Source: a virus (Duplodnaviria > Heunggongvirae > Uroviricota > Caudoviricetes). From it: 50,883 nucleotides of DNA. The position numbers and the translations under genes are program-made. The stretch lies in the IMG/VR virus record IMGVR_UViG_2874962485_000005; one strand, written 5' to 3'. Under the pieces are notes generated by a model. It was not told the origin of the DNA and ran no database searches. It saw nothing but the letters and a program-made list of their open reading frames with translations. This document shows positions 37,348-37,658 of the stretch, one piece after another (position 1 is the stretch's first letter; each line of letters opens with the position of its first letter).

Positions 37348-37422
37348 TGGAGCGGGCAGCGGGAATCGAACCCGCATCATCAGCTTGGAAGGCTGAGGTA
37401 ATAGCCATTATACGATGCCCGC
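37348..37422 (-). tRNA. tRNA-Gly (anticodon UCC)
   Basis: GCGGGCATCGTATAATGGCTATTACCTCAGCCTTCCAAGCTGATGATGCGGGTTCGATTCCCGCTGCCCGCTCCA; 7-bp acceptor stem, TTCGATT T-loop, encoded CCA. Confidence 0.85.
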
Positions 37423-37425
37423 ATA

Positions 37426-37501
37426 TGGTGCCGACTACCGGAATCGAACTGGTGACCTACTGATTACAAGTCAGTTGCTCTGCCTGCTGAGCTAAGTCGG
37501 C
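37426..37501 (-). tRNA. tRNA-Thr (anticodon UGU)
   Basis: GCCGACTTAGCTCAGCAGGCAGAGCAACTGACTTGTAATCAGT...GGTAGTCGGCACCA; one mismatch in T-stem. Confidence 0.75.
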
Positions 37502-37503
37502 GC

Positions 37504-37580
37504 TGGCCCACCACCGAGGACTCGAACCTCGCACCGTCAACTTAGAAGGTTGATGCTCTATCCGGATGAGCTAGTGGTGG
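37504..37580 (-). tRNA. tRNA-Arg (anticodon UCU), unusual C1-G72 first pair
   Basis: CCACCACTAGCTCATCCGGATAGAGCATCAACCTTCTAAGTTGA...CCTCGGTGGTGGGCCA folds as cloverleaf. Confidence 0.7.
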
Positions 37581-37581
37581 T

Positions 37582-37658
37582 TGGTGGCCCTTGCTGGACT
37601 TGAACCAGCGACCTGGCGATTATGAGTCGCTCGCTCTGACCAACTGAGCTAAAGGGCC
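37582..37658 (-). tRNA. tRNA with anticodon CAU (Ile2/lysidine-type or Met)
   Basis: GGCCCTTTAGCTCAGTTGGTCAGAGCGAGCGACTCATAATCGCC...CCAGCAAGGGCCACCA; resembles enterobacterial ileX-type tRNA. Confidence 0.75.

Follow-up and report, generated by a model that had tools for sequence, protein, structure and literature searches.

The tRNA gene cluster

The stretch of viral DNA analyzed here (50,883 nucleotides (nt), Caudoviricetes, IMG/VR record IMGVR_UViG_2874962485_000005; referred to as the window) carries a cluster of four tRNA genes at positions 37348-37658, in which genes for tRNA-Ile2, tRNA-Arg, tRNA-Thr and tRNA-Gly follow one another almost without spacers (Table 1). The cluster is an established tRNA module of lambdoid prophage late regions and has already been annotated in hundreds of Escherichia coli genomes. 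In the window, its last gene, coding for tRNA-Gly, directly adjoins an island of different ancestry that contains exact copies of a T7 promoter.

ARAGORN identified exactly four tRNA genes in the window, all of them on the minus strand and within the cluster, and Rfam agreed on each. These results confirm the positions, anticodons and spacers of the initial annotation, which was made from the sequence without database searches and had left the strand unstated. All four folds pass the covariance model, with scores of 56.4 to 70.5 bits compared to a gathering score of 29 bits for the Rfam tRNA model and with E-values ranging from 1e-9 to 1e-13. In the order of transcription, the spacers comprise 1 nt (37581), 2 nt (37502-37503) and 3 nt (37423-37425), and CCA is encoded by all four genes.

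The first gene had been described as Ile2/Met-type on the basis of its CAU anticodon. It carries C4-G69 and C5-G68, the acceptor-stem pairs which are recognized by TilS in tRNA-Ile2. In pairwise comparisons, it was identical to K-12 ileX at 69/77 positions and to ileZ of Shiga toxin (Stx) phages at 74/77 positions, and an identical E. coli copy is annotated as tRNA-Ile by the Prokaryotic Genome Annotation Pipeline (PGAP). Consequently, the tRNA is assigned to the Ile2 type and the Met designation is dropped. It would need lysidine at C34 in order to read AUA. The second gene, for tRNA-Arg, has the ends 5'-CCACCAC...GUGGUGG-G-CCA, which form the previously noted C1-G72 pair and an acceptor stem of seven perfect pairs; there are no mismatches in the D, anticodon and T stems either, and A20 and C35 are present.

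Relatives in lambdoid late regions

The entire 311 nt of the cluster are found with 100% identity in E. coli CFSAN029787, where they are situated between a Q-family antiterminator gene and a gene for a class II holin. The holin gene is followed by lysozyme, terminase and portal genes, and the prophage is apparently intact. Among 5426 complete E. coli genomes, 603 (about 11%) contain a place that covers at least 80% of the cluster; 10 records are at least 99% identical to it, and most of the others show 92-94% identity and carry the anticodon UUU in the second slot. The order of Q, tRNA genes and holin is shared by PhiR47_1, an isolated phage, and by prophages of the strains 2009C-3133 and CAVP888, and in Stx2a_F349 the Q gene is followed by ileZ-argN-argO and then by stx2. 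In the window, the tRNA genes share their strand with the Q-like, NinB and anti-repressor (ant) genes of the prophage. A tR'-like hairpin and the Q-like gene lie upstream, with the ant gene and an insertion sequence (IS) between them, and the lysis cassette is missing, with the island in its place.

Several known systems share features with this arrangement. The ileZ-argN-argO genes of Stx phages (Stx2a_F349 and the 933W group) likewise lie between Q and the late genes on the same strand, have a 1-nt spacer between their first two genes and conserved promoter boxes, and are related in sequence to the tRNA-Ile2 and tRNA-Arg genes. However, their argN has the anticodon UCG instead of UCU, and the window lacks argO, contains a pair derived from thrU and glyT and has no stx gene after the cluster. 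The Ile-Lys-Thr-Gly clusters of PhiR47_1, vB_EcoS-689R5 and approximately 600 E. coli genomes agree with the window in their four slots, their spacers and their location between Q and holin at the 92-94% identity given above, but differ in slot 2, where UUU is accompanied by C33, and in their tRNA-Thr, which is identical to thrU (76/76). A literature search retrieved no paper naming both ileZ and argN.

Further tRNA genes downstream of Q were described for SfI, Sf6, ST64T and P21, and the SfI paper refers to Schmidt et al. (1997) for the rare-codon hypothesis (PMC3636060). They resemble the window cluster in their genomic slot and in the proposed rare-codon role, with a bias toward ACA reported for SfI. 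Their tRNA sets are different ones (Asn GUU and Thr UGU in the case of SfI; PMC3636060).

The initial annotation had considered the cluster to be phage-like, either of the T4 type or of the ileZ-argN type of lambdoid phages. The eight tRNA genes of T4 are tightly packed and include Ile-CAU, Arg-UCU, Thr-UGU and Gly-UCC. The resemblance is one of anticodon set and packing, whereas the context in the window is that of a temperate lambdoid phage and the genes derive from ileZ/argN and from the host. Therefore, the T4 type is rejected, and the lambdoid alternative is borne out by the occurrence of the complete 311 nt between Q and holin.

Origin of the four genes

Sequence comparisons indicate that the module is composite and consists of a phage pair of the ileZ/argN type joined to a captured host thrU-glyT pair without tyrU. 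The tRNA-Arg gene is identical to Stx-phage argN (UCG) at 64/77 positions, to the UUU ("Lys") version of the relatives at 65-66/77 and to host argU at 58/79 positions. In the second half of the module, tRNA-Thr differs from K-12 thrU by two changes in the D loop (74/76; the tRNA-Thr of the relatives matches at 76/76), and tRNA-Gly is identical to K-12 glyT (75/75). Due to this identity or near-identity, the tRNA-Thr and tRNA-Gly genes add no new decoding capacity. The spacer between them, TAT, corresponds to the first nucleotide after K-12 thrU and the two nucleotides before glyT, which is consistent with a deletion of tyrU and its flanks from thrU-tyrU-glyT, although three nucleotides are weak evidence.

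Slot 2 combines one C1-G72 backbone with three anticodons: UCU in the window, UCG in Stx-phage argN and, in the majority of E. coli prophages, UUU (copies compared: the tRNA-Arg gene of Table 1, L002 6157-6233, L005 203-279 and L008 1501-1577). The C1-G72 pair, first taken to be unusual, is a trait of the whole slot-2 lineage rather than a peculiarity of this tRNA-Arg, as it is shared with argN of Stx phages. A U33 is near-universal in tRNAs, and the UUU version has C33 instead. Slot-2 copies at the loci L013, L014 and L015 look degenerate; those of 2009C-3133 and CAVP888 exhibit mismatches in the acceptor and D stems and receive no tRNA call by PGAP, and a degenerate version of the cluster is present on a Salmonella plasmid.

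The tRNA-Gly gene as a putative attachment site

Homology to E. coli prophages stops exactly at the 3' end of the tRNA-Gly gene at position 37348, and homology to an island starts at position 37347. The sequence across this junction reads 5'-...GCCCGCTCCATGACCTTTCTTAAAG. The first island gene codes for an intact tyrosine recombinase, an ordinary member of its class; the window encodes no other island protein. The recombinase shares 95% identity with the integrase of an island in E. coli 21AR0133 and 74% with that of an island in E. coli EPSSH018 (L005), which is located beside a prophage tRNA-Gly gene. The matching E. coli island adjoins chromosomal glyU, a gene for tRNA-Gly(CCC) beside actS, and in 21AR0133 it has a length of 7.3 kb, with 18 nt of the glyU 3' end directly repeated at its terminus. 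Since glyT and glyU are distinguished by just three positions within their last 26 nt, the prophage tRNA-Gly gene is a plausible secondary site for a glyU-specific island. In this model, a glyU-specific island would have been integrated by its tyrosine recombinase at the glyT copy of the prophage and would now stand in place of the lysis and structural genes found after the tRNA genes in intact relatives.

An independent parallel is provided by EPSSH018, in which a related island of 6.4 kb separates an Ile-Lys-Thr-Gly prophage cluster from the holin gene, and the prophage continues beyond the far side of the island. Here, the displaced native 3' end of the glyT type is kept as the right attachment site (attR) just before the holin gene (L005 6769-6791), while the tRNA-Gly gene itself (L005 361-435) has a hybrid 3' end of the glyU type with two mismatches and one wobble pair in the T and acceptor stems. 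Direct repeats representing attR are present in EPSSH018, 21AR0133, L016, L022, L024, L028, L032 and L033.

The island in the window spans positions 37347 to 34880, is interrupted there, resumes at 28653-28130 and is then cut by another IS. The elements that separate its two parts are listed in Table 1, together with the remaining features of the locus.

Table 1. Features of the tRNA cluster, its upstream region and the adjoining island (all features in order of decreasing coordinates).
Feature	Position	Strand	Remarks and source
Q-like DUF1133 gene	39964-40638	-	Pfam, PHROGs
isrK	39855-39931	-	Rfam
C4 antisense RNA	39743-39827	-	Rfam
IS3-family insertion	38420-39576	-	Pfam, PHROGs
ORF6N anti-repressor (ant) remnant	37867-38514	-	Pfam, PHROGs
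Intrinsic-terminator hairpin with U7 tract, tR'-like	37745-37775	-	upstream of the tRNA genes; folding and alignment
Predicted sigma-70-like promoter, TTTGCA-18-TATTAT	37668-37697	-	ends 10 nt before tRNA-Ile2; consensus scan
tRNA-Ile2 type, anticodon CAU	37582-37658	-	first in cluster; ARAGORN; Rfam, 70.5 bits
tRNA-Arg (UCU), C1-G72	37504-37580	-	variable slot 2; ARAGORN; Rfam, 56.4 bits
tRNA-Thr (UGU), near-copy of host thrU	37426-37501	-	ARAGORN; Rfam, 69.8 bits
tRNA-Gly (UCC), equal to host glyT	37348-37422	-	3' end is the left junction of the island (putative left attachment site, attL); Rfam, 64.9 bits
Island tyrosine recombinase, intact, 534 aa (DUF6538 and Phage_integrase)	35629-37233	-	114 nt after tRNA-Gly; Pfam, PHROGs
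121-bp tandem repeat, 3.1 copies	35248-35616	-	directly after the integrase gene; Tandem Repeats Finder (TRF)
AT-rich short repeats, T7-origin-like layout	34947-35082	-	after the promoters; TRF
IS911 fragment	34691-34881		splits the island, with the IS66-family element and the group II intron side by side
IS66-family element, three open reading frames (ORFs)	32023-34638	-	Pfam
Group II intron with 507-aa reverse transcriptase/maturase ORF	29141-30754	-	Rfam, domain V-VI at 29141-29227
Remaining island fragments	28130-28653	-	CTAGGGTCTCTCT repeats at 28589-28653; first 41 codons of a Rha-like gene at 28130-28246; blastn and tblastn with the intact 21AR0133 island

Proposed expression and codon usage

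On the minus strand, the prophage early genes are followed by hok/sok, NinB, the Q-like DUF1133 gene, isrK, the C4 RNA, the IS3-family insertion, the ORF6N remnant, the hairpin, the predicted promoter and finally the tRNA genes. RNAfold yields -22 kcal/mol for a segment of 56 nt (37735-37790) containing the hairpin; a pattern scan for terminators made no call on it. In CFSAN029787 and PhiR47_1, a hairpin is found at the same place with a different stem and loop sequence. The TTGCA-like -35 box and the TATTAT -10 box are conserved at a constant distance in seven upstream regions that otherwise diverge, among them that of Stx2a ileZ. The conservation of these boxes and the position of the hairpin point to a dedicated, constitutive promoter, to which Q-dependent read-through would be added in intact phages.

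A single precursor would accordingly be transcribed from the conserved sigma-70-type promoter approximately 10 nt upstream of the cluster, and in an intact phage, Q-antiterminated transcription passing through the tR'-like hairpin would also read the tRNA genes. Cleavage by RNase P and subsequent 3' exonucleolytic trimming are established for other closely spaced tRNA operons of E. coli. As the spacers comprise only 1-3 nt, RNase P cleavage at each 5' end would be expected to separate the four tRNAs, 3' exonucleases would trim them to the encoded CCA, and TilS would convert C34 of the CAU tRNA to lysidine.

The initial annotation had regarded all four codons as rare in enterobacterial genes. 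In the prophage genes of the window (1449 codons), AUA, AGA, GGA and ACA occur 17.3, 10.4, 11.0 and 10.4 times per thousand codons, respectively. The corresponding values are 7.3, 8.9, 15.4 and 9.3 for the late and 6.6, 7.1, 18.8 and 14.7 for the early genes of the CFSAN029787 prophage, and 2.6, 1.9, 9.7 and 9.7 for a sample of four host genes (1541 codons). Relative to this sample, AUA and AGA are enriched approximately 3- to 6-fold in prophage genes, GGA at most 2-fold and ACA not at all. The idea of codon supplementation thus fits AUA and AGA, applies only weakly to GGA and does not fit ACA. The tRNA products would mainly raise the decoding capacity for AUA and AGA, while the tRNA-Thr and tRNA-Gly copies would add dosage only. 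For ipaH, whose codon usage the initial annotation had proposed to analyze, the values are 10.5, 7.0, 7.0 and 15.7 per thousand in the above order; this gene belongs to a different prophage remnant at a distance of 32 kb, and the cluster does not serve it in cis.

Evaluation of alternative explanations

Overall, the locus is probably best explained as a lambdoid late-region tRNA module of composite origin that has stayed intact in a heavily decayed prophage of the Shigella type and whose tRNA-Gly gene served as a secondary attachment site of an island. Several observations weigh against this explanation. A search of the window for attR with a 28-mer at up to three mismatches gave no hit, and a 10-mer gave chance-level hits only; since no attR survives, the integration event is inferred from the junction and from the relatives. 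In addition, the tRNA-Gly gene keeps a 3' end of the glyT type where EPSSH018 has a hybrid, which might reflect a different crossover or a later repair of this end. All steps of expression beyond the sequence itself are extrapolated from established E. coli tRNA biology, and the host codon reference is a small one. The tRNA-Thr and tRNA-Gly genes duplicate host genes, and their codons ACA and GGA are barely enriched. Finally, the late genes that the tRNAs would serve are gone from the window, so that any present benefit would fall to other horizontally acquired genes or be nil.

Two readings of the locus as something other than an internal prophage module are contradicted by its context and are given practically no credence. 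According to one of them, the cluster would be a fragment of the host operon thrU-tyrU-glyT-thrT-tufB, or of another chromosomal tRNA operon, and not of phage origin. Indeed, the tRNA-Gly genes are identical, the tRNA-Thr genes agree at 97%, the leftover spacer nucleotides match the host flanks, and nearly every E. coli genome matches the Thr-Gly half of the 311-nt query. However, tyrU, thrT and tufB are absent, the promoter is a different one, the tRNA-Ile2 and tRNA-Arg genes agree with ileX and argU at only 69/77 and 58/79 positions, the flanks belong to a prophage, and the module as a whole is found again between Q and holin in relatives. The earlier statement that the cluster is not host-operon-like therefore remains valid for the operon as a unit, but not for half of its genes: identity to a chromosomal tRNA operon, named there as a possible refutation, was found for tRNA-Gly and nearly so for tRNA-Thr, and not for tRNA-Ile2 and tRNA-Arg. 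According to the other reading, the 534-aa integrase would be that of the prophage itself and tRNA-Gly would mark the prophage end, for which an integrase gene beside the 3' end of a tRNA gene is the classic layout. This is refuted by the relatives, as their tRNA cluster is internal, the closely related integrases belong to glyU islands of 5.5-7.6 kb without phage structural genes, and the EPSSH018 prophage extends past its island.

The remaining alternatives concern the function of the tRNA genes. It is possible, though rather unlikely, that they are neutral relics without a selected function at this locus, which are intact only because the decay of the prophage is recent. Numerous IS elements are scattered through the surrounding prophage, from which the lysis and structural genes have disappeared, slot 2 has decayed in 2009C-3133 and CAVP888 and the cluster as a whole on the Salmonella plasmid, and two of the four tRNAs are redundant with host genes. 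Against this stand the perfect stems and the 100% identity of all four genes to those of an apparently intact prophage, the intact promoter boxes and the fact that IS elements struck the neighboring ant gene as well as the island while sparing the 311 nt of the cluster. An explanation of the phage tRNAs, and of slot 2 above all, as replacements for or decoys against the targets of tRNA-cleaving nucleases (anticodon nucleases, colicin D, PARIS-type systems) instead of codon supplements is considered improbable. A precedent exists in a published virus-encoded tRNA that neutralizes PARIS (PMC11464382), and slot 2 is unusual in its C1-G72 backbone, in the exchange of UCG, UCU and UUU on one scaffold and in the C33 of the UUU version. 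However, the anticodon loop of the tRNA-Arg in the window, CUUCUAA, is identical to that of host argU, so that no obvious protection from nucleases would result, and tRNA-Gly and tRNA-Thr are identical or nearly identical to their host counterparts.

T7 promoters and the island family

Directly downstream of the integrase gene, each copy of the 121-bp tandem repeat contains an exact TAATACGACTCACTATAGGGAGA, the 23-nt T7 class III promoter, on the minus strand (35518-35540, 35397-35419 and 35277-35299). A pattern search for T7 promoters returned these three hits with 0 mismatches, where 0 were expected. In a search against T7 alone, the best match of the promoter flank was phiOR, with 86% identity over 42 nt. 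The AT-rich part that follows weakly matches T7 positions 5912-5995, the AT-rich region after phi1.1B (primary origin), with 64% identity over 86 nt and an E-value of 0.009 in 40 kb; the resemblance of this stretch to the T7 replication origin is suggestive only. With blastn, the non-coding region of the island matched phages in the promoter itself only, and the more sensitive search against T7 alone added weak matches to the origin and the right end, which are suggestive at most. Vector contamination as the source of the promoters was ruled out, as the flanks within the 121-bp repeats are not vector-like, the module is chromosomal in 91 E. coli genomes, and related islands carry the promoters of other phages.

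The module with T7 promoters is chromosomal and unannotated in 91 of the 5426 E. coli genomes, and 20 species-representative genomes, among them those of Klebsiella, Citrobacter, Enterobacter, Pectobacterium, Proteus, Morganella, Serratia and Buttiauxella, encode relatives of the integrase. The integrase gene adjoins tRNA-Gly(CCC) in 15 of these 20 relatives, and direct repeats of the tRNA 3' end flank several of the islands. Sixteen of the 20 exhibit between one and four 23-mers resembling promoters of the T7 group, on the strand of the integrase gene and at most 1.3 kb downstream of it. The promoters of the Klebsiella island match 143 records of Klebsiella T7-like phages as well as T7-group records, and those of EPSSH018 have several matches per genome in K1F-type phages (Kayfunavirus) and in T7-like phages of Salmonella. 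Between their direct repeats, the islands are 5.5-7.6 kb long, and they have a common gene plan of integrase, an optional DUF4145 gene, the promoters, a Rha-like gene and genes for proteins of 61-67 aa, 136-163 aa (DUF6971 in some islands) and 329-373 aa. The 329-373-aa and 61-67-aa proteins have no match in Pfam, PHROGs, NCBIfam or PADLOC. The islands apparently represent an uncharacterized family that is distributed across Enterobacterales and normally resides at glyU. A literature search revealed no paper that describes T7-promoter islands or T7 satellites, or that mentions DUF6971 or DUF6538.

The DUF4145 gene was identified as PD-T7-4 (PADLOC, E-value 3e-97 in EPSSH018). It follows the integrase gene in 11 of the 20 related loci and in EPSSH018, where the two genes overlap by 17 nt (the only locus at which the overlap was checked). 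Vassallo et al. (2022; PMC9519451) recovered PD-T7-4 by selecting for resistance to T7 and remarked that it "often overlaps an integrase gene", with which the overlap in EPSSH018 agrees; the term "T7 promoter" and promoters of phage RNA polymerases do not occur in the text of this article. The island in the window resembles the integrase element associated with PD-T7-4 in its tyrosine recombinase beside a tRNA 3' end and in the direct repeats of intact relatives (PMC9519451). It differs in being truncated, in lacking PD-T7-4 and in its location at a prophage tRNA-Gly(UCC) gene instead of chromosomal glyU. PADLOC gave no meaningful hit for the integrase of the window, and PD-T7-4 is also missing from the closest relative of this island.

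The codon usage of the island genes (counted in L012 356-7160, L005 570-6359 and the integrase gene of the window) is close to that of T7: the ratio AAG/(AAA+AAG) is 0.61 in the islands, 0.69 in T7, 0.32 in the lambdoid prophage and 0.16 in the host, and the ratio GAG/(GAA+GAG) is 0.62, 0.62, 0.46 and 0.25, respectively. This suggests that the island genes are adapted to T7-like phages or derived from them. Furthermore, nine islands (L012 7357, L005 6549, L016 15018, L033 14842 and five more) each contain a single instance of the motif AAAAAT[CG]T..-N26-38-CCCC[AG]TAG, which lies 220-280 nt before attR in the eight islands in which attR was mapped. It is found once in T7 (L036), at position 39761 at the boundary of the right terminal repeat, i.e., the concatemer junction, and gave no hits in shuffled sequence; as the pattern was defined post hoc from these same sequences, its statistics are not independent. 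Plasmids with a T7 origin and a concatemer junction are reportedly packaged by T7, an observation said to go back to Chung and Hinkle in 1990. The T7 class II pause signal ATCTGTT was rejected as a conserved feature, since only two of eight islands contain it, in both cases inside the integrase gene.

Judged by their promoters, the islands would very likely respond to the RNA polymerases of T7-like phages. One to four promoters per island for the single-subunit RNA polymerases of T7-like phages of the respective host genus, the layout resembling a T7 origin, the junction-like motif, the T7-like codon usage and the frequent presence of PD-T7-4 form the basis of a tentative proposal, to which we assign somewhat less than an even chance: the islands may be satellites of virulent T7-like phages, or defense elements triggered by their RNA polymerases. 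In this scenario, the tRNA-Gly gene of the window would represent a secondary landing site, at which such a parasite of a virulent phage became nested in a temperate prophage, within its late operon.

Other features of the window

The window as a whole is a mosaic of decayed prophages with many copies of one IS3-family element. Two pairs of isrK and C4 antisense RNA, at 39743-39931 on the minus strand and at 8012-8200 on the plus strand, each lie beside a gene of the anti-repressor or Rha type and mark two separate lambdoid prophage remnants of opposite orientation; a hit for the c4-a1b1 target is located at the first pair (39892-39944). Additional loci include an ipaH-type E3 ligase gene (LRR and NEL; 3719-5434) adjoining the Shigella small RNA CssrB (3408-3590), a sitABCD-like metal ABC transporter between tail-fiber remnants (19975-23424) and the hok/sok locus mentioned above, with sok at 42891-43065.

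Biological implications

By itself, the tRNA cluster changes nothing, as it was already known, although it may help to translate AUA- and AGA-rich genes acquired by horizontal transfer. The adjoining island is the better lead. Its position illustrates that a host tRNA copy carried by a phage can act as a spare attachment site, by which one mobile element nests in another and disrupts it. If the islands are satellites, they would, to our knowledge, be the first for the classic T7 group.

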